From assembly GCA_944376845.1 (NCBI GenBank), contig CALWDZ010000003.1:59758-123757 (forward strand): DNA of 64,000 nt, given 5' to 3'. Under the pieces are notes generated by a model that did not search any database, was not told the origin of the DNA, and worked only from the letters and a program-made list of their open reading frames with translations. Below are positions 4,238-32,166 of this stretch, in pieces. The translations under genes were made by a program, and so were the position numbers. This stretch comes from an uncultured Clostridia bacterium (GTDB taxonomy: Bacteria > Bacillota > Clostridia > Christensenellales > UBA1242). The number at the start of each line of letters is the position of its first letter. The first letter of the stretch is position 1.

Positions 4238-4545
4238 TTCATTCTGAACCTTTTTTGTCTGAGCCTTATCTTCTGCTATTCTGACATTATCTTCCGTCAT
4301 TCTGAGCGTAAGCGAAGAATCTCAACTTTACGTCACCCTGACCACTGCTCGCTTTGACGGAGAGGAAGGGTCTCTAAGAGGATGAGACTCTTCGTCAGCC
4401 GTCAGGGAAGCCACACTCAGAGTGACTAGAAAAATGTCATTCTGAACCCTTATGTCATTCTAAACAATCTTTTGTCATTCTGAGCGAAGCGAAGAATCTC
4501 AAAGATGTCTTACTTCGCTCGACATGACAAGAGAGAGTGACATAA
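4238..4545 (+). repeat. cluster of GC-rich short repeats (S modules GTCATTCTGAG..GAAGAATCTC at 4296-4323 and 4474-4500, degenerate copies, and a 95-nt L module at 4332-4426)
   Basis: Repeated GTCATTCTGA[GA]C words. The L module GTCACCCTGACC...CAGAGTGAC recurs at 30.9 and 31.6 kb. GC content is clearly above the flanks. Confidence 0.85.
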
Positions 4546-21598: not shown

Positions 21599-21674
21599 GG
21601 ATCGCTAGCTCAGTTGGTAGAGCATCTGACTCTTAATCAGGGGGTCCAGGGTTCGAACCCCTGGCGATCCACCA
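21599..21674 (+). tRNA. tRNA-Lys (anticodon CTT), CCA encoded
   Basis: Manual cloverleaf: acceptor GGATCGC/GCGATCC, anticodon stem TCTGA/TCAGG with loop CTCTTAA, T arm CAGGG-TTCGAAC-CCCTG. Confidence 0.9.
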
Positions 21675-21680
21675 CAACGT

Positions 21681-21709
21681 AAATGGAGAAGTTTACTCCA
21701 TTTTTTTTG
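21681..21709 (+). terminator. intrinsic terminator after tRNA-Lys
   Basis: ATGGAG-AAGTTTA-CTCCAT followed by T8. Confidence 0.7.
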
Positions 21710-21717
21710 TTTTGCAA

Positions 21718-21742
21718 CTGATTAAGAGTCAGGACTCTTAAT
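21718..21742 (+). other. hairpin built from an exact reverse complement (15 nt) plus a direct copy (10 nt) of the tRNA-Lys anticodon arm
   Basis: CTGATTAAGAGTCAG is the reverse complement of 21626-21640. It is followed by GACTCTTAAT. Confidence 0.8.
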
Positions 21743-21762
21743 ATTCGAAGAATATAACATCG

Positions 21763-21844
21763 TTTCGTGGTCACAAACTCGCAAGCGGTTTGCTCCCTCT
21801 CAACTCGTTATCAGTGGGTCCGGGGTTCGAGCCCCGCGAGAAAT
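21763..21844 (+). other. tRNA-like fragment (T arm CGGGG-TTCGAGC-CCCCG with partial acceptor pairing, no canonical cloverleaf)
   Basis: T arm at 21821-21837. TTTCGTG/CGAGAAA can pair at 6 of 7 positions. The D and anticodon arms do not fold canonically. Confidence 0.4.
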
Positions 21845-21925
21845 CTCATATATGTCTCACTCTGTTCGACAAGGCACAAGACTGTTTCACAAGGCATAGT
21901 AGTAGGCGTACAAGACACAAAATGT

Positions 21926-21962
21926 GTCATTCTGAGGCACCGTCAGGTGCCGTGAGAATCTC
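21926..21962 (+). repeat. S-module repeat GTCATTCTGAG-(GCACCGTCAGGTGCC)-GTGAGAATCTC
   Basis: Conserved clamp words with a hairpin insert. Confidence 0.8.
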
Positions 21963-22011
21963 GTTCATTTAGTTAGAAAATTTTAATAATTATTTGTACT
22001 GATTTTTAAAA

Positions 22012-23737: not shown

Positions 23738-26700
23738 ATGAAATCTTTAAAAACTAAGATAGCCACCGTATTTAGTTTTATATGCCTAGCACTGTCAATG
23801 GCAGTGTTTGGCGTTTTTTCTGCAATCAATATACAAAATAATACCAATGGTCAACTTGGCTACATAGATAAAACTTGCTACATACAAAATTCGTCTGGAA
23901 GTAAAACATTTTACTCCACAATAGAAAAGGCTTATGCTAGTGCCACCGATGGTGACGCTATTTGTGTTTTTGAGGATATATCACTTTCAGCGGACTTTTC
24001 GGTTGAAAAAAACATATCACTTATGGCGGTTTCTTCAGATGTTACACTAAATCTTTCAGGATACAACATTGTTATTGGTAGTGGCAACACACTCACTTTG
24101 GGTGGTGGCTTAAATACATTAACACTTTCTTCAAGTTCAAATAGTACAATACAAAATGAAGGCACATTAAATGTCTATGGTGGAATTATTTCAAGTGCGG
24201 AAATTACCAATATGGGCGAATTGACATTTTTTGGCGGACAAGTAGATACCATAGCAAATACAGGACTTGTCACACTTTCGCAGTCTGCACAAATCAATAC
24301 AATACAAACAACACAACAAACCGCAGGAGAAACCGATGCGGGAATTTTTGTTTCTTCAAACTTTGTAGCAACTTCACCAATACAACTTATTATAAGTGGC
24401 GGAACACCTACACCGGGTCAACAAGTTGCATATTTTCAAGAGTTGGCAGATGCACAAAATTTTGCGGACTATTTCACCTTGACGAACTCTGGATATTTCT
24501 TGCACACTTCGGGCAATTCACTTTTAATAGGTCAATACATCACACCACCAACAGTAAGTGGACAATCTACTTTCATGTATGATGGTACTTTAAAGACATT
24601 GCGATTTAGTGGTTTAACATCATTAATGAGTGTTTCGGGCGACACACAGACTAATGCTGGAGATTACACCGCAACGGTATCACTTACCGATAAAACTAAT
24701 TATCGTTGGTCAGATACAAGAGATAGTGTTGATAAAGAATTCCGTTGGAGCATTGACCCTGCACAACTTGAATATCCAACAGTTGAACAAGATGAATTTA
24801 CATATAACACTCAATCACATTCACTTGTATTTAGTGGATTAAATAAGGATTTAATGGAGGTTAGTGGAACAACATCTGCAACAAATGTTGGAACATATGC
24901 AGCACGTGTAAGTCTTAAAGATAAGGTAAATTACACATGGGTAGATGGTGAAACTGGTGATGTAACATATCCATGGACAATAAACAAACGTCAATTAACT
25001 ATTCCAACCGCTAATCCAGCAAGTTATACATACACAGGGTCTGTTATAACTGCAACTTATACAAACCCAGATTCCGAGAATATAACACTTGGCGGGGATT
25101 TGACTGCGACAGTGGTTGGCAGTTACACCGCAACGGCGACAATAAAAGACACTGCAAACAATGAATGGACAGATGGAACAACATTAGTTAAAAATATTGA
25201 ATGGTCAATCACAAAAGCCGATCTTTTGGCACCAGATGGGCTCATATGGATACCATCTGAAGATAAATCGTCAGCAACGGCAAGATGGAATGCTGTGTCA
25301 GGTGGACAGTCATACACAGTTACAGTACTTGTCAATGGTTTACCAAGCGATCTTACAAAGACTATAAATTCAACAGAAGTTAACTTCACATCAACTGAAC
25401 TTAATGCGCTAGACAACGGCACATATACCTTCCGCGTTCAAGCAATTGGCAATTCTAACTACAACGATAGTCCTACAGCAACCTCGGGCAACTTGTATAG
25501 ACTTGTCTACATGACAAACGATGGTACAAGTACAGTCCATGCAAGACAGTACTATACACAAGGACAAAGCATATCAGCACCTAGTAAACCATCACGCACA
25601 GGCTACAACTTTATCGGTTGGGCAACTACAAACACGGCAACATCAGATAACTTGCCATCAACCGCCACAGAATCAGATACATACTATGCAGTATGGAGAG
25701 CAATTTCATATAATATATCCATTAACAACGCAAGTGGCACTGGTGGTTCTGTAGCACCTTCAACCTATACTACATCTGCAAAAGATCAGAGAATAACAAT
25801 AACAGAGCCAACACGTGTGGGCTACACATTTAACGGTTGGGCAATTAAAGTTGACGGTTCATATAGTGGAAAAGAACCAACAGTAAGCGGAACAACACTC
25901 ACAATACCAGCAAATTGCTATGGTAACATTACTCTTACTGCAACTTGGACAGCAAGACAATATAATATTACTTTAAATCAAAACAGTGGCACTGGTGGTA
26001 CTATCAATACAGCAACATATAATACCTCAACCTCAAGTCAGACAAGAACATTAACAAACCCAACAAGAGCAGGTTATGAATTTGCTGGTTGGGCAATTAA
26101 AGTTGACGGTTCATATAGTGGAAAAGAACCAACAGTAAGCGGAACAACACTCACAATACCAGCAAATTGCTATGGTAACATTACTCTTACTGCAACTTGG
26201 ACAGCAAGACAATATAATATTACTTTAAATCAAAACAGTGGTACTGGTGGTTCTATCAACACAGCAACATATAATACCTCAACCTCAAGTCAGACAAGAA
26301 CATTAACAAACCCAACAAGAGCAGGTTATAGATTTGCTGGTTGGGCAATTAAAGTTGACGGTTCATATAGTGGAGAAGCACCAACAGTAAGCGGAACAAC
26401 ACTTACAATACCAGCAAATTGCTATGGTAATATTACCCTTACTGCAAATTGGACATTGGCTATTTACACCATTACATTTGAAAGAAATAGTGGTACATGG
26501 GCAAGTGGTTACCCTGTACCAAAATCCTACAATATAAATTCAGGTGAAATCACATTACCAACAGCAGACAATATCTATCGTACAAACGATATCTTCTCAG
26601 GTTGGTATACTTCATCCACCTTCTCAGGAGATCCTGTAACAAGCATTCCAGCAGGTTCAACCGGTAACAAAACCTATTATGCACAATGGACAGAGGCTGC

Positions 26701-29053
26701 GGTATATAACACAACCCGTAACTTAGGTTATAGTGACCTTACAACTGCAATAGAAAAGGCTAATGCGGGCGAAACCTTGGATGTCTTGAGTAATTTGACA
26801 TCTACTGAAACTTATATTGTAGATAAATCTCTTACAATTCAAGCAAATACAAATGATGTTGAAGTGGAGGGCTCATTTAATGTTTCCGTAGGACATCTCA
26901 TTTTGGGTGGTGGAGCGAAAAGTTTAACCATAACAAGTTCAGTTGATGCAATAACTATTTCGGGTACCGCAAATTTAACCACTAATAATCTCATTGTAAA
27001 TGTCACTACAAAATCTTCTGCAATAGTTAGCACAACTACTGGTGAAATAAATCTAGTAGGTGGAAAGATGGATGCAGTTAATCCTTATAGTCTTTCTAAT
27101 AATGTTTATTGTATAGAAGTTTCTGCTGGCACTTTGACAATAAGTAATGTTATGATAAATTCTGATACAAAATATGTTTCTTTATACAATAGTGGAGCAG
27201 AAGTGTATATAAATGGGACACAAACCATTATATATGGGATTGACAACTCTATTGGAACAATGACTATAAATGATGGTGAAATATTCAATACTTCGTCATC
27301 CAGTAGTGCAATCGACAATTCTGGCACTTTGACTTTATACGGAGGAACTATAACTGCTGGAAAGTGGGCTGTGATTAGTGGTGGAGATGGATATGGGATC
27401 TCAAATTCGGGAACTCTAAAAATTAATGATGATGTAACAATATCAGGTGGTGATAGTGGTTTATATATTGATTCTGGCTTGACAGAAATTAGTAAGGGTT
27501 CAATCAAAGGAAATCTGTACGGAATTTATTGTATAGGTGGAGATATTAATATATCAGGAGGATCATTCATAGGTACTCAAACTGCTGGAATTTACAATGA
27601 TGGTGGAAACATAAATATTTCGGAAATGACAATGATAGTAGAAATTTCATCTGATAATTATGGAATTTTTAATAGACAAGGTACGATTGAAATCTCAGCA
27701 GGTACAGTAACTGGTGAAGTAGGAATACGAAATGCTCACGAATATAGTACCGTTTCTTATATAGTAGCTACATATGCGACATTAACTGTTTCAGGTACAG
27801 CTAATATAATAGGAACACAATATGGAATAGAAAATGAAGGGCAAGGCTCACTGTATGTAAAAGGAGGAATAATAAAAGGTTCATCCACCACCTCATCGAG
27901 AGGTATTTCTATAGATACTTATTTAGACGTTAACCAAGGCGATGTTGATACAGCTATTATAGAAATATCAGGTGGAGAGATATCAGGATATCAAGGAATT
28001 AATACTAATCATTGGTTAGATATTGATGATAGTAATGGTAAAGTGTATATATCTGGTGGAAGTGAACCTGATAATTCTACCGATAATAATATAAAGGCAG
28101 CAGGAATTTATTATTATCCGTCAGCTTATACTGCTGATAATAATATTTCTGCTGGAACTATCAATGGCTACTATGGTATTTACGTGTCTGGATCCACTAG
28201 TAATGATTCTTTCTCTTTAGTTATAAGCGGTACAGCAGAAATTGTAGGTACACAATACGGAATATATAACGAATCAAGCGGTACCGTCAATATTCGTGGT
28301 GGAACAGTTACTGCAAATGGAAATGGTGGTAGAGGAATAGAAAACTCTTCTGGTATTGTCAACATCAGTGGTGGAAAGATACAAACAACTGGTAAAGCTG
28401 CTTTCTCTATATACAATTATGATGGAACAGTTGATATATCGTCTAAAGCACAAGTCACAGCAGTATATAGAGGAATTTATAGTAGAGGTAGTTCAAGTAA
28501 TGTAACTATAAGTGGTGGGACAGTTACTGTAACTGGATCTAGTGGTAGAGGAATACATAACTCTTCTGGTAGTGTTACAATCAGTGGTGGAACGGTACGA
28601 ACAACTAGTAGTACATCTACTTACTCTATATACAATTCAAATGGAACAGTTGATATATCGTCTAAAGCACAAGTCACAGCAGCATATAGAGGAATTTATA
28701 GTACAGGTAGTTCAAGTAATGTAACTATAAGTGGTGGAACGATAAATGGTAGCACTTATTGTATCTATTTAGATTCATCAGCTACACTTAATCTTAGTGG
28801 TTCTCCTACTTTCAGTGGGAGTAGAAGAATTCACTGCAATACTACATTAAATACAAGTGTTCCACATAATGCACCTATTTATGTTTCATCTCCTTTAAGC
28901 CTTAGTTCAACTATTAGGTTATCCGCTAGCTCAAATGGATATATTGTTAGGGGGTCTATCTCTTCTTTGGATCAATATTTTAGTGCTTATTCTGGTAGTA
29001 TTAGTAGTCCAATTTATTCTATGGGAACGTATGGTCTTAGGTATAGTGCATAA
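23738..29053 (+). CDS. giant (1771 aa) cell-surface adhesin-like protein
   Basis: N-terminal anchor, then MBG-like repeats (NAGDYTATVSL..NY), an Fn3-like module and six Listeria-Bacteroides (InlB B-type) repeats (PTRTGYxFxGWA). About 750 aa of G-rich beta-helix-type repeats follow (ISGG, GIYN.GG). Confidence 0.85.
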   Translation: MKSLKTKIATVFSFICLALSMAVFGVFSAINIQNNTNGQLGYIDKTCYIQNSSGSKTFYSTIEKAYASATDGDAICVFEDISLSADFSVEKNISLMAVSSDVTLNLSGYNIVIGSGNTLTLGGGLNTLTLSSSSNSTIQNEGTLNVYGGIISSAEITNMGELTFFGGQVDTIANTGLVTLSQSAQINTIQTTQQTAGETDAGIFVSSNFVATSPIQLIISGGTPTPGQQVAYFQELADAQNFADYFTLTNSGYFLHTSGNSLLIGQYITPPTVSGQSTFMYDGTLKTLRFSGLTSLMSVSGDTQTNAGDYTATVSLTDKTNYRWSDTRDSVDKEFRWSIDPAQLEYPTVEQDEFTYNTQSHSLVFSGLNKDLMEVSGTTSATNVGTYAARVSLKDKVNYTWVDGETGDVTYPWTINKRQLTIPTANPASYTYTGSVITATYTNPDSENITLGGDLTATVVGSYTATATIKDTANNEWTDGTTLVKNIEWSITKADLLAPDGLIWIPSEDKSSATARWNAVSGGQSYTVTVLVNGLPSDLTKTINSTEVNFTSTELNALDNGTYTFRVQAIGNSNYNDSPTATSGNLYRLVYMTNDGTSTVHARQYYTQGQSISAPSKPSRTGYNFIGWATTNTATSDNLPSTATESDTYYAVWRAISYNISINNASGTGGSVAPSTYTTSAKDQRITITEPTRVGYTFNGWAIKVDGSYSGKEPTVSGTTLTIPANCYGNITLTATWTARQYNITLNQNSGTGGTINTATYNTSTSSQTRTLTNPTRAGYEFAGWAIKVDGSYSGKEPTVSGTTLTIPANCYGNITLTATWTARQYNITLNQNSGTGGSINTATYNTSTSSQTRTLTNPTRAGYRFAGWAIKVDGSYSGEAPTVSGTTLTIPANCYGNITLTANWTLAIYTITFERNSGTWASGYPVPKSYNINSGEITLPTADNIYRTNDIFSGWYTSSTFSGDPVTSIPAGSTGNKTYYAQWTEAAVYNTTRNLGYSDLTTAIEKANAGETLDVLSNLTSTETYIVDKSLTIQANTNDVEVEGSFNVSVGHLILGGGAKSLTITSSVDAITISGTANLTTNNLIVNVTTKSSAIVSTTTGEINLVGGKMDAVNPYSLSNNVYCIEVSAGTLTISNVMINSDTKYVSLYNSGAEVYINGTQTIIYGIDNSIGTMTINDGEIFNTSSSSSAIDNSGTLTLYGGTITAGKWAVISGGDGYGISNSGTLKINDDVTISGGDSGLYIDSGLTEISKGSIKGNLYGIYCIGGDINISGGSFIGTQTAGIYNDGGNINISEMTMIVEISSDNYGIFNRQGTIEISAGTVTGEVGIRNAHEYSTVSYIVATYATLTVSGTANIIGTQYGIENEGQGSLYVKGGIIKGSSTTSSRGISIDTYLDVNQGDVDTAIIEISGGEISGYQGINTNHWLDIDDSNGKVYISGGSEPDNSTDNNIKAAGIYYYPSAYTADNNISAGTINGYYGIYVSGSTSNDSFSLVISGTAEIVGTQYGIYNESSGTVNIRGGTVTANGNGGRGIENSSGIVNISGGKIQTTGKAAFSIYNYDGTVDISSKAQVTAVYRGIYSRGSSSNVTISGGTVTVTGSSGRGIHNSSGSVTISGGTVRTTSSTSTYSIYNSNGTVDISSKAQVTAAYRGIYSTGSSSNVTISGGTINGSTYCIYLDSSATLNLSGSPTFSGSRRIHCNTTLNTSVPHNAPIYVSSPLSLSSTIRLSASSNGYIVRGSISSLDQYFSAYSGSISSPIYSMGTYGLRYSA
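25835..26460 (+). repeat. 252-bp (84-codon) tandem repeat, about 2.5 copies, first two about 98 percent identical
   Basis: GGTTGGGCAATTAAAGTTGACGG recurs at 25835, 26087 and 26339. Only 5 or 6 substitutions separate copies 1 and 2. Confidence 0.9.
28405..28739 (+). repeat. 219-bp (73-codon) tandem duplication in the beta-helix region
   Basis: CTCTATATACAATT...AGTAATGTAACTATAAGTGGTGG recurs at 28405 and 28624 with few substitutions. Confidence 0.8.
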
Positions 29054-29081: not shown

Positions 29082-29126
29082 GTCATTCTGAGTCCAACTT
29101 CAACGCGTCGACCTGCGAAGAATCTC
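29082..29126 (+). repeat. S-module repeat with ACGCGTCGAC-containing insert
   Basis: GTCATTCTGAGTCCAACTTCAACGCGTCGACCTGCGAAGAATCTC is nearly identical to the copies at 30866 and 31536. Confidence 0.85.
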
Positions 29127-29222: not shown

Positions 29223-30434
29223 ATGAATTTAAATTTCATAAATCAAATTGCTTTTTTTAAGAGAAAAACTGGCAACAAAGTGCGTAAACTAACCAGATTT
29301 AAAAACAAATCAAGTGTTGAGTATAATGCATCACTTAGTATTAAAGATATTTTGGAACCGCTTATTGAAAAAGATATGCGAGACATCAATAAGATGATTG
29401 AAACCCTTTTTCGTAAACTTATGGCAAATAGAATGGGGCTTTTTACCATTGTCAAATTTGATATGAAAAATTATTTTCCATCCATATCACTTCGCTATGC
29501 TTATGATTTTTTCATCAAAGATAAAATTAGCGAAAAATATCATCCACTTTTTGAAAATTATTGTGATAATGTTAAATACAATCTTCAAGGGCTTCCACCG
29601 TCAAGCAACTTTGCGGCAGTTATGTCAAAGGCACTAAAAGACGAACTATTTGCATTTTTTAAAGTTGATGGACTAACCGATTGCTTTTATTATGTAGATG
29701 ATTTTGTGCTATTATTCAAAAAGCGTGTAAATGAAATTTACATCAAATTTGGTATTTTGGAATGTATTAAAAATGTATTTTTTAAACGCAACAAATTACA
29801 ATATCAAAACAAAGTTAAGGCACATATTGATGACTCAAAATATACTTTTTTGGATGATACAAAACTTCCTGGCAGTTTTACATGGCTAGGTTATAAAATC
29901 GGCATTTCATATGGTTGGCAGGGCATTGGCATAACGCTAGATATGGCAGATTACAAGATGGAAATATATAGAAAAGCATTTTTTGACGCCGTTAAACAAA
30001 ATTATGCTGATGAGGAAAAGATGCGTTTGATGCTATATTCTAGCACTCGCAGTGTAGTTACAAAAATACACAAGCAGGGGAAACCAGATAAAAATGTCAG
30101 CATTTCACCATTTAAATTTTACAAAAACTTCAAAAAGTACCCAGAACTGGTAGGTGAAAACACTCGACGTTTTATGCAAGGAGTGATTGTAGATGCTTTT
30201 AGACAACAAACTATTGCCATGCCATTTTATTTAAAAGATAAAGATCCAAACAGCGGTTACAATCTATGGCATAACTTTTTTAACAGCAAAGCCATTGTAT
30301 TAAATAAAACATTTGGATGGTCTTATGAAAAACTTTATAACACCATGAAAAAATATTCCAAACTTGACATTCACTCAAAGTCATATGAACAACTTGCAAA
30401 AATGTATATAGATAATTTTGTGATAAAACTTTAA
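29223..30434 (+). CDS. stand-alone reverse transcriptase, class unassigned (retron/UG-Abi-like architecture)
   Basis: RBS AAAGGAGAA precedes the ATG at 29223. Motifs occur in order: FDMKNYFPSI, LQGLPPSSNFAAVMSKAL, CFYYVDDFVLLF (YVDD at 29691-29702), FTWLGYKI. A ~150-aa C-terminal extension has no endonuclease or maturase signature. Confidence 0.8.
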   Translation: MNLNFINQIAFFKRKTGNKVRKLTRFKNKSSVEYNASLSIKDILEPLIEKDMRDINKMIETLFRKLMANRMGLFTIVKFDMKNYFPSISLRYAYDFFIKDKISEKYHPLFENYCDNVKYNLQGLPPSSNFAAVMSKALKDELFAFFKVDGLTDCFYYVDDFVLLFKKRVNEIYIKFGILECIKNVFFKRNKLQYQNKVKAHIDDSKYTFLDDTKLPGSFTWLGYKIGISYGWQGIGITLDMADYKMEIYRKAFFDAVKQNYADEEKMRLMLYSSTRSVVTKIHKQGKPDKNVSISPFKFYKNFKKYPELVGENTRRFMQGVIVDAFRQQTIAMPFYLKDKDPNSGYNLWHNFFNSKAIVLNKTFGWSYEKLYNTMKKYSKLDIHSKSYEQLAKMYIDNFVIKL

Positions 30435-30441
30435 TATTTAT

Positions 30442-30470
30442 TTGTAAATTTTTTTAATTTGTGTTATATT
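30442..30470 (+). promoter_or_regulatory. sigma-70-type promoter TTGTAA-17 nt-TGtTATATT
   Basis: -35 at 30442-30447, extended -10 at 30462-30470, 8 nt after the RT stop codon. Confidence 0.5.
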
Positions 30471-30476
30471 ATGTTT

Positions 30477-30570
30477 AAGGTTGCGAGAGCGACTGAATTA
30501 CCCGAATTCGAAACAAGATCTCAGATGTTGTTTCATGCGGGTGGGGCTGCGGCGCCACCCCTTTTTTTTT
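30477..30570 (+). ncRNA. candidate ~95-nt small RNA (or structured RT 3' UTR) ending in a strong intrinsic terminator
   Basis: Bounded by the promoter above and by a GC-rich hairpin at 30538-30561 plus T9. Internal hairpins GAATT-ACCCG-AATTC and GAAACA..TGTTTC. No RBS for the 33-codon ORF it contains. Confidence 0.4.
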
Positions 30571-30696
30571 AAAACTAAAAAATAACTCTTGATAGTTTCG
30601 TTTACTGCCAAGCGTGTCCGCACAGTTACGTACGTTTGTACGCGCCTGCGCGGACACACTTGTCGAGCCTTACTCTCAAGGTTATTTTTTAGTTTT
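30571..30696 (+). repeat. 126-nt multi-helix element A1 (family with 52329-52454)
   Basis: 16-bp terminal stem AAAACTAAAAAATAAC/GTTATTTTTTAGTTTT, junction motif CGTTTACTG, inner stem GTGTCCGC/GCGGACAC, core hairpin CGTAC-GTTT-GTACG, junction motif GTCGAGCCT. Confidence 0.8.
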
Positions 30697-30735
30697 AAAT
30701 ATTATTTAGCCTTGTCTTTCTTCGCAAAAACGATG

Positions 30736-30781
30736 TGCGCGGACTTGTCGAGCCTTACTCTCAAGGTTATTTTTTAGTTTT
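30736..30781 (+). repeat. partial second copy (3' half) of element A1
   Basis: TGCGCGGAC-TTGTCGAGCCTTACTCTCAAGGTTATTTTTTAGTTTT duplicates 30647-30696 with a 4-nt deletion. Confidence 0.8.
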
Positions 30782-30795
30782 AAATATACTATTTA

Positions 30796-31066
30796 GTCAC
30801 CCTGACCGCTCTCAGACCACTTGTCATTCTGAGGAGCGAAGCGACGTGAGAATCTCATCATCTTGTCATTCTGAGCCCAACTTCAACGCGTCGACCTGCG
30901 AAGAATCTCTATCATATGTCACCCTGACCACTGGCCCGCTTTGATGGAGAGGAAGGGTCTCAACTATAAGAGATCCTTCGTCAGCCGTCAAGGAAGCCAC
31001 ACTCAGAGTGACTAAAAAAATTGTCATTCTGAGCCTCGACCCGCAGAGACGGAGACGAAGAATCTC
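30796..31066 (+). repeat. repeat block left of GIY-YIG (S and L modules; contains the left ~177-bp direct repeat at 30821-30997)
   Basis: Near-identical to 31491-31666. Confidence 0.9.
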
Positions 31067-31086
31067 TTTAAGCATTTGCCAAATAT

Positions 31087-31401
31087 ATGAATTTGTGTAA
31101 TAATCTTACTATGTATTATGTTTACATTTTATCCAATAAAAACAATACGGTTTTATACATTGGAGTTACAAATAATTTGGTAAGAAGAGTTTATGAACAT
31201 AAACAAAAATTTGTTCAAGGTTTTACAAAAACTTATAATGTAGACAAACTTGTTTATTATGAAATTTTGTATGATCCATATAATGCAATTACAAGAGAAA
31301 AACAATTGAAAGGATTGAAAAGAAAGAAAAAAGATATGCTAATAAATAATTTTAATCCGGATTGGCACGATTTATATCAAGATATTTGTAATAGCGTATG
31401 A
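31087..31401 (+). CDS. GIY-YIG nuclease family protein (small UPF0213/COG2827-type)
   Basis: YYVYILSNKNNTVLYIGVTNNLVRRVYEH...AITREKQLKGLKRKKK is the GIY-YIG core. The start may be the ATG at 31111. Confidence 0.85.
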   Translation: MNLCNNLTMYYVYILSNKNNTVLYIGVTNNLVRRVYEHKQKFVQGFTKTYNVDKLVYYEILYDPYNAITREKQLKGLKRKKKDMLINNFNPDWHDLYQDICNSV

Positions 31402-31700
31402 GATCCTTCGTCAGCCGTCAAGGAAGCAGTTCTCAGGATGACACACACAGTCTTCTGAGCATATTTTTCTGTCATTCTGAGCGTACTTTTTTGTCATTCT
31501 GAGGAGCGAAGCGACGTGAGAATCTCATCATCTAGTCATTCTGAGCCACACTCCAACGCGTCGACCTACGAAGAATCTCTATCATATGTCACCCTGACCG
31601 CTCCCCGCTTTGACGGAGAGGAAGGGTCTCAACTATAAGAGATCCTTCGTCAGCCGTCAAGGAAGCAGTTCTCAGGATGACACACACAGTCATTCTGAGT
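31399..31700 (+). repeat. repeat block right of GIY-YIG (contains the right ~177-bp direct repeat at 31491-31666 and a 60-nt segment duplicated at 31401 and 31640)
   Basis: Direct sequence comparison. The GIY-YIG stop codon is the first triplet of the block. Confidence 0.9.
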
Positions 31701-31704
31701 CAAG

Positions 31705-32166
31705 TCACACGGCATCGTCAGAAATGTGATGAGTTTTATTCTTTAAACAAAATAGAGCGTATAAAGGTACTGATTTTATGTTGTTTTCAAAACCAAAATT
31801 TTTAGATGAAACTCTAATAGAGTAGATAGGATTATATTTTTTTACAAACACACCAAGACTTTTTGCTTGGACATTGTCTACATATTTGCATTCAATTGGG
31901 ACTATACCATTCTCTAACTGAATAACAAAGTCAAGTTCAGCCTTTCCATTGGACTCCCAATAATATGGTTCAAGCCCAATTGAAATAAGTTGTTGCATAA
32001 CATAGTTTTCAGATATTGCACCTTTGGCATCGCTTGACAACATATCCATTAAAATATTTTGATAGTTTAAATTTAAACTATTTGATAGCAAGCCTACATC
32101 ACTCATATATATTTTATAACTTAATAAATCTTCATAAATTTTTAAAGGCATCAATTTAAGAAGCAT
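31705..32166 (-). pseudogene. C-terminal remnant of a DUF4143-type AAA ATPase
   Basis: Only the ~150-aa C-terminal region is present (…AELDFVIQLENGIVPIECKY…). The ~250-aa ATPase part has no room before gltX. Confidence 0.6.

Follow-up and report, generated by a model that had tools for sequence, protein, structure and literature searches.

A 64,000-nt stretch of contig CALWDZ010000003.1 from an uncultured Clostridia (Christensenellales-like) bacterium (the window) carries at positions 30796-31701 a dense cluster of a single repeat family, arranged around a small open reading frame (ORF) for a GIY-YIG nuclease. The gene is called ssn here, after the nuclease family to which its product very probably belongs. 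Two direct repeats of ca. 177 bp, each composed of two short (S) modules followed by one longer (L) module, bracket the 96-aa GIY-YIG gene. Pairwise alignment of 30821-31012 with 31491-31681 gave a mean identity of 91%, with the mismatches located mostly at the 3′ end of L; segment 30821-30932 was 95% identical to 31491-31602 over 112 nt and segment 30935-31012 was 91% identical to 31604-31681 over 78 nt. An initial annotation of this DNA had described near-identical direct repeats made of two S modules and then an L module, and both statements were confirmed, the identity of the copies being ca. 91-95%. It had also placed the end of the ORF at a module boundary. This was correct as well: the ssn stop codon TGA (31399-31401) overlaps a reverse-oriented S-type module (GAGATCCTTCG...CTCAGGATGAC), which is identical over 53 nt to 31639-31691, the right half of the second L module.

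Analysis of the domain content of the ORF showed GIY-YIG alone (PF01541, E 1.2e-17, residues 9-81 of the 104-aa ORF). The 104-aa length results from the ATG at 31087 that gene callers selected as the start, while a start at 31111 gives a protein of 96 aa beginning with MYYVYIL. The latter is the likely start codon because homologues begin with M-x-YYVYIL and a promoter-like site ends at 31104. Since this site ends 6 nt before the ATG, the mRNA would be nearly leaderless. In a BLASTP comparison the window protein was 49% identical to the 94-aa gonococcal orthologue of SsnA over 90 aa without gaps (E 8e-30), and it thus falls within the published family definition, which is homology to Neisseria SsnA at E < 1e-10 (PMC11893778). 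The gonococcal 94-aa protein is the sole homologue in N. gonorrhoeae and has an NTS/dRS3 repeat directly after its gene; from its length and context we infer that it is the NMV_0044 orthologue. Residues Y5, Y16 and E63 of the window protein align with the catalytic residues Y6, Y17 and E64 of SsnA. The protein is also distantly related to PDB 1zg2. Searches of PADLOC and NCBIfam returned no meaningful family for the nuclease, and the NCBIfam model for group I intron endonucleases (TIGR01453) scored 16 bits against a cut-off of 56.

The Ssn family of minimal single-domain GIY-YIG nucleases was described by Chenal et al. (Nat Commun 2025, PMC11893778); bacterial minimal GIY-YIG forms had formerly been grouped with Slx1 (PMC1564403). 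SsnA of N. meningitidis, a single-domain protein of 94 aa (CDD cd10448), binds the NTS hairpin (CGTCATTCCCGCGMAVGCGGGAATCYRG) as single-stranded DNA (ssDNA) only and cuts it a few nucleotides upstream, without action on double-stranded DNA (dsDNA), RNA or the opposite strand (PMC11893778). The hairpin recognised in ssDNA consists of GTC, an AT-stem and a C; cleavage depends most on the three bases before the palindrome and binding on the C after it, and mutants in Y6, Y17 and E64 had lost cleavage (PMC11893778). The same study found the same behaviour for three SsnA homologues assayed on their own flanking hairpin repeats, reported a nearby motif for 71% of Ssn homologues and a motif on both sides for 42%, showed that Neisseria Ssn reduces transformation by NTS-bearing DNA, and raised an insertion-sequence-like layout as a hypothesis (PMC11893778). 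The CGTC-tagged REPs, which include Neisseria dRS3 and Rickettsia RPE-4/6, had been defined by Di Nocera et al. in 2013, who found no dedicated enzyme for them (PMC3733652).

The modules in the window follow a common scheme. In every module GTC and A-Y-N3 are followed by a middle part that varies, and this by the complement of N3-R-T and a C. S modules read GTCATTCTGAG, a variable part and GARGAATCTC, whereas in the 95-nt L module a spacer of 8 nt separates the left half from an inverted right half, and the whole folds into one long hairpin. The resulting repeat class combines a stem of 5 bp with a conserved 3x3 internal loop (GAG/GAA) and a variable tip, 6-25 nt long, and with the base before GTC included the modules read TGTCAT or CGTCAC. 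With at most one mismatch allowed, the motif GTCATTCTGAG had 18 occurrences in the window, where 0.65 were expected. With a strict module definition (the "half hairpin") 17 modules were found against 0.18 in shuffles; this definition was used, and a looser first pattern yielded mostly false positives. The predicted DNA fold of the first L module had an energy of −19.2 kcal/mol (z −3.3) and that of the second −21.7 kcal/mol (z −4.0), while the S module at 21926 (z −3.3) was the only S with a convincing fold. Rfam searches of the whole window at the gathering threshold returned three tRNAs only, and at E ≤ 10 nothing credible was found in 30400-31800; a COG2827 RNA motif was likewise not matched. 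A hammerhead-like core, prompted by CTGAGGAG in the first S module, was rejected on inspection, since neither the other modules nor the dominant GTCATTGCGAG class contain the motif.

All 12 solo or left-type modules in the window read GTCAT or GTCAC on the plus strand. The GC skew of the window is positive throughout and most genes lie on the plus strand. Since the modules share this strand and the skew is positive, the strand predicted to be cut would be the lagging-strand template; with only four clusters, this strand bias in the sequence is suggestive.

The relation between gene and repeats was followed through the 80 closest homologous loci from a genome scan (57-69% protein identity, 447 kb in all), which span Ignavibacteria, Planctomycetes, Elusimicrobia, Patescibacteria, Chloroflexi, Nitrospirae, Clostridia, Proteobacteria and others. 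In these relatives a left half of the form GTCATTGCGAG-variable-GAAGCAATCT(C) lies 15-45 nt before the ATG, and a right half of the form GAGATTGCTTCG-variable-CTCGCAATGAC lies in inverted orientation at the stop codon. Of the 80 loci, 44 had a left half no further than 120 nt from the ATG, 45 a right half at the stop codon (starting directly after the stop in 26), and 35 both. The initial annotation had made the partnership of nuclease and repeats depend on an enrichment of repeats near GIY-YIG genes. Such an enrichment was found: of the 216 hairpin halves, 149 are no more than 200 nt away from the gene, and their orientation is biased as expected. The base before GTC in these 216 halves was T in 144 and C in 51, and the stem triplet covaries among lineages (TGC/GCA, TCT/AGA, CCT/AGG, TTC/GAA, CCC/GGG). 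The layout of left half, gene and right half in the relatives indicates that the L module of the window is the gene-less version of this arrangement and that S modules are solo left halves. Further homologues were found by tblastn in Neisseria, Sinorhizobium, Azospirillum, Sphingobium and Rhizobium, in a plasmid collection that includes some whole chromosomes, and CGTC repeats flank the gene in all three loci that were read (Neisseria, S. meliloti and A. lipoferum). Metagenome scans with the promoter region of the window unit and with the L-module core gave no match.

We therefore assign 31111-31401 with high confidence to an Ssn-family nuclease that has the S and L modules as its cognate repeats, because the protein shares 49% identity with its gonococcal counterpart and keeps the catalytic Tyr/Tyr/Glu, and because GTC, AT-stem and following C are all retained in the modules. 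Judged from their sequence, the window modules are a divergent form of the Ssn-related motif (SRM), within the superfamily of NTS/dRS3 and CGTC-tagged REP repeats. The partnership of nuclease and repeats is already established for the Ssn family, and the locus is a further, divergent example of it and not a new kind of element. By analogy with the characterised homologues, the window protein would bind and cut ssDNA hairpins. The proposal in the initial annotation that nuclease and repeats are partners, with the nuclease acting on the repeats, is in this respect borne out for the family by the published biochemistry, and its extension to the window protein is by the same analogy.

By the same comparison, a strand reading GTC-AT...AT-C would, when single-stranded, fold at least its basal stem, and Ssn would bind the folded strand via the palindrome and the C directly after it. 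The enzyme would then cut a few bases 5′ of the GTC and spare dsDNA, RNA and the complementary strand. The dispersed modules may thus mark places of cleavage for ssDNA that enters the cell or is exposed inside it. The nuclease gene with its two adjoining modules, a unit of 420 bp, most likely moved by recombining through the repeats, an event that nicks made by Ssn may have stimulated, and the 177-bp direct repeats would represent an S-S-L composite repeat flanking the inserted block.

On the plus strand, where all features lie unless stated otherwise, the cluster starts with a truncated 5′ end of an L-type left half (GTCACCCTGACCGCTC, 30796-30811), the same as the starts of both L modules (family D6). 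Copy A of the direct repeat contains S1 (30821-30857), a short monomer GTCATTCTGAG...GTGAGAATCTC with a weak hairpin of a 5-bp stem only; S2 (30863-30910), a short module of which the tip recurs at 29082 and 31535; and L1 (30918-31012), a gene-less dimer with its left half at 30918-30961 and, after the spacer, its inverted right half at 30970-31012. The 420-bp unit (31023-31442), of which the position varies among strains, follows. It comprises the left hairpin module S3 (31023-31066), whose GTC is the start of a block common with sister strain L084, a promoter-like site TTGCCA-17-(TG)AATAAT at 31076-31104 (a consensus match only, 10 of 12 positions, extended −10), ssn itself (31111-31401) and, on the minus strand and overlapping the stop codon, the right hairpin module GTCATCCTGAG...GAAGGATCTC (31400-31442). 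A junction with truncated S heads (GTCTTCTGAGC and GTCATTCTGAGCG, families D3 and D11) occupies 31443-31490. In copy B, S1′ and S2′ (31491-31580) are 94.8% identical to a repeat cluster of L084 and are followed by L2 (31588-31681), the second gene-less dimer, of which the right half is the one identical to the module at the ssn stop codon. Another truncated S head (GTCATTCTGAGTC, family D3, 31687-31701) ends the cluster. Each L also contains a leftward promoter-like sequence TTGACG-17-TATAGT on the minus strand (30963-30991 and 31632-31660), as a consensus match only.

Three further clusters of the same repeat family occur in the window, all without a nuclease gene; the window has one GIY-YIG gene. 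The cluster at 4296-4528 (plus strand) consists of an S, an L, another S and a second dimer. The other two are solo S modules on the plus strand, at 21926-21960, with a good distal stem, and at 29082-29124, between the stop codon of a surface-protein gene and its terminator and upstream of a reverse transcriptase (RT) gene.

Comparison with sister strain L084, whose Ssn protein is the same and whose DNA on the gltX side matches at 98% identity, revealed a different position of the cassette. In the window the order is surface protein, S, RT gene, repeat cluster with ssn, ATPase fragment and gltX, whereas in L084 it is surface protein, repeat cluster with ssn, RT gene, three S modules and gltX; copy B of the direct repeat matches this post-RT cluster. 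Region 31023-31442 differs from L084 at only 3 of 420 positions (99.3% identity), and the identity breaks off sharply at both ends of the unit, at the GTC of S3 and the GAC of the right half. The RT block is only 91.7% identical between the two. Relatives at 87-90% GltX identity had no modules and no ssn within 10-15 kb of the locus, and in one of them the surface-protein gene abuts gltX. Loci L090 and L091 keep the RT and its small RNA without repeats and without ssn, and L088-L091 have no counterpart of the S module at 29082. The different position in L084 and the absence from more distant relatives indicate that the cassette is polymorphic and that the unit relocates; the strain data further imply that it is not fixed, that it is not tied to the RT and that repeats and gene appear and disappear together. 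Fixation of the cassette in all relatives, which would have spoken against a mobile cassette, is thus not what the strains display, since both position and presence vary. The initial annotation had suggested a mobile or selfish cassette with the nuclease spreading the repeats: the first part agrees with the polymorphism and relocation among strains, and for the second nothing shows that the nuclease itself spreads them.

Related loci show similar traces. At four loci of the subclade ssn lies between direct repeats of adjoining modules, which measure 177 nt here and ca. 45, 75 and 80 nt elsewhere. No short target-site duplication was seen at these loci, where long direct repeats of adjoining modules were present instead; such bracketing repeats would be the expected trace of integration by recombination through a shared repeat. 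One Melioribacter metagenome-assembled genome (MAG) contains three copies, 100% identical and with unrelated flanks (L024, L025 and L028). Their ssn unit of ca. 470 nt is bounded by an 18-nt terminal inverted repeat (CAATGYTGTCAGGTTAAG), and apart from two isolated bases the copies of the unit differ only in the tip of the right hairpin, which in one copy carries an extra 46-nt palindrome. Hairpin tips therefore seem to be hot spots of change. In S. meliloti (L082, 1160-1320) the two flanking repeats are present a second time beside the intact ssn and enclose only the last ca. 100 nt of the gene, an internal-deletion derivative that points to a possible origin of gene-less repeat dimers. In groundwater metagenomes (L092-L101) one identical 97-aa Ssn occurs within a block of ca. 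825 nt, ca. 95-99.7% identical, in at least four gene neighbourhoods, including DnaB/replication genes, a DDE transposase, pilin-like genes and others; one instance lies in tandem with a second GIY-YIG gene.

Several observations weigh against the Ssn assignment as formulated above. The published SRM motif, HGTCWYN(0-2)YYVSBRHN(0-5)WNVSBRGN(0-2)RNCYNB, run as a regular expression, gave no match in the window, compared to 9 in the gonococcal locus and 4 in that of Azospirillum. Only one of the 80 closest loci had a match near the gene, and the interrupted-stem form was present in 62. Folding is a further point. The initial annotation had described the modules as hairpins, which holds for L1, L2 and the S module at 21926; S1-S3 have a 5-bp closing stem only and fold no better than shuffles, and some of these modules may have decayed or be bound differently. 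The difference between the window and L084 could equally be explained by movement of the RT block instead of the ssn unit. Finally, the role in Neisseria, where Ssn limits natural transformation, may not apply to a gut Clostridia-like host. As to the motif search, the sequence comparison indicates that the repeat class of the subclade is distinct in having an interrupted stem, and that it is a variation on the Ssn theme and not a different system. Since the SRM motif misses the repeats at 79 of the 80 closest homologues, the reported association is probably an underestimate.

An extension of the Ssn assignment, compatible with it, is that the hairpin-ssn-hairpin unit is an autonomous transposable element of a new type, with S and L as non-autonomous derivatives and Ssn copying or spreading the repeats. 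We consider this possible but doubtful. The layout is insertion-sequence-like, with L as the gene-less form of left half, gene and right half and with the internally deleted gene between the same two repeats in S. meliloti. The 420-bp unit is sharply bounded, has two positions in sister strains and ends 0-4 nt from the expected Ssn cut on each strand. The three identical copies with unrelated flanks in a single Melioribacter MAG, the ca. 825-nt block in several neighbourhoods and the occurrence of 57-69% identical members across very distant phyla also point in this direction. On the other hand a GIY-YIG hydrolase forms no covalent intermediate, and we know of no strand-transfer activity for such hydrolases. 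A target-site duplication was not seen, ssn occupies one syntenic site across the genera of Ignavibacteria, as with vertical inheritance, and no relatives were detected in the phage genomes and viral contigs searched. Moreover, ordinary homologous recombination between repeats can account for the relocation. That the unit is a currently active mobile element that moves itself and the S and L modules by a new mechanism, as a "REPtron" of CGTC-type repeats, is likewise a tentative proposal that we regard as rather unlikely.

The other explanations fit the data less well. GIY-YIG is a classic fold of homing endonucleases, and the "loop" between two halves, which are also found together as a gene-less dimer, is filled exactly by the gene, so the unit might be a homing cassette that cuts dsDNA at an empty repeat, for example in the L spacer, and is copied in by double-strand-break repair. 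This is very improbable, since the protein is a catalytic domain alone without a DNA-binding module, lies far below the cut-off of TIGR01453, and has no intron or intein context, its setting being chromosomal and intergenic with no phage relatives found; besides, the left half next to the gene is of the S and not the L type, and characterised homologues are inactive on dsDNA (PMC11893778). The analogy to homing endonucleases in the initial annotation fails for the same reasons. The annotation had alternatively proposed that repeats simply pile up where they are tolerated. In its stronger form, this means that the repeats are generic intergenic palindromes, acting as terminators or mRNA-stability elements at the RNA level and accumulating in a tolerant variable region, and that the nuclease is incidental. 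The three other clusters lack a nuclease gene, and the locus is a variable island with an RT gene and a truncated ATPase. Such coincidence is hardly credible and insufficient as an explanation in view of the geometry of gene and hairpins, which is fixed across phyla down to the overlap with the stop codon, and of the joint presence or joint absence of repeats and gene among relatives. The window modules also lack a T-tract and are not scored as terminators, and SsnA does not bind RNA (PMC11893778). A retron-like system in which the neighbouring RT makes ssDNA that the GIY-YIG nuclease processes can be given almost no weight, even though Ssn enzymes act on ssDNA hairpins and an RT is found beside ssn in the window, in L084 and, as a different RT, in L085 and L086. 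Between the two RTs there is hardly any relationship (27% identity over 94 aa), ssn and RT do not keep a constant order, and an RT lies near ssn at none of the 80 wider loci. The retention of RT and small RNA in L090 and L091 without repeats or ssn largely refutes the linkage, which was rejected.

The locus most resembles the described pairs of Ssn and NTS/SRM repeats. It shares with them a single-domain GIY-YIG protein of ca. 95 aa with conserved catalytic residues, oriented hairpins on both sides of the gene with the GTC tag, a stem initiated by AT and a following C, and the occurrence of repeats in dispersed intergenic clusters. It differs in having a 5-bp stem with an internal loop and tip instead of an 8-bp stem with a loop of 4-5 nt, in the additional 95-nt dimer (L) of which the halves pair with each other, and in its host, a low-GC Clostridia-like gut bacterium. 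With the CGTC-tagged REPs the modules have in common the unpaired C/TGTC tag, a stem opening with A-T and T-A and a short tail; both often form dimers of opposite orientation and occur in clusters between genes. The REP stem is 8-9 bp with a loop of 4-5 nt, however, and in stem length and loop size the window repeats are outside the four defined families (PMC3733652). The Ssn gene would provide the enzyme associated with such repeats, not necessarily as a transposase.

The REP/REPIN-RAYT and IS200/IS605 systems also have a nuclease gene between inverted copies of a genome-dispersed hairpin repeat, gene-less doublets, recognition of hairpins in ssDNA and a cleavable strand that is the lagging-strand template, as predicted here. 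This likeness is architectural only: the window enzyme is a GIY-YIG hydrolase and not an HUH/Y1 tyrosine transposase, and its system has no known strand-transfer chemistry and no GTAG tag. Homing endonucleases of the I-TevI type and nucleases of the Slx1 type share the GIY-YIG catalytic fold, but the window protein has neither a DNA-binding or RING domain nor an intron context, and the characterised Ssn members cut only ssDNA beside a specific hairpin.

The neighbourhood of the cluster has features of its own. Region 29223-30565 contains the RT-like ORF, of 403 aa with a YVDD motif, which gave no Pfam match even at E ≤ 10 and only weak matches to retron-type RT models, PADLOC RT_III-A (1.6e-6) and the NCBIfam retron St85 RT (1.5e-3). 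After it, at 30470-30565, lies a small-RNA-like element of ca. 110 nt that has a terminator hairpin and a promoter-like site of its own. The RT and small RNA are conserved, with compensatory stem changes, in L090 and L091, the loci without repeats and ssn, and may constitute an uncharacterised RT and ncRNA system. An exact 45-nt direct repeat (30658-30702 and 30743-30787), present as a single copy in L084, follows; each copy ends in 19 nt complementary to 30568-30586. At the other side, abutting the end of the cluster, a 153-aa ORF on the minus strand (31705-32166) represents the C-terminal third only of a DUF4143/AAA-type ATPase (PADLOC PDC-S01, E 1.4e-45, model positions 295-435 of 439) and is absent from L084. 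The surface protein encoded at 23738-29053, with Flg_new repeats, varies greatly in length among close relatives, with 1771 aa in the window, 2591 aa in strain L084 and 2654 aa for L088. Farther upstream, tRNA-Lys (21599-21674) is followed by broken-tRNA-like sequence, with an anticodon-arm-like part at ca. 21720 and a T-arm-like part (GGGTCCGGGGTTCGAGCCCCGCGA) at ca. 21815, and then by the S module at 21926; ARAGORN calls the first tRNA only, and the stretch 21599-21965 may be an old integration scar. At L085 (694-1746), the closest other locus of ssn (72% identity) is followed by a different RT that is bracketed by repeat modules, with tandem repeats of ca. 24 nt after it. This RT has the motif IGNQISQ, which may resemble that of diversity-generating retroelements.

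Minimal GIY-YIG nucleases that are paired with hairpin repeats of their own were described and tested only in 2025. To this family the present locus adds a member from a low-GC Clostridia-like gut bacterium and a repeat architecture that is invisible to the published SRM search motif. It also provides a natural comparison, in which a 420-bp unit occupies different positions in two near-identical strains and is absent, together with its repeats, from more distant relatives. Each new pair of nuclease and hairpin is a candidate site-specific reagent for cutting ssDNA. If the unit is indeed an active mobile element, the interrupted-stem class that dominates the 80 closest loci would be a large unrecognised part of the system.

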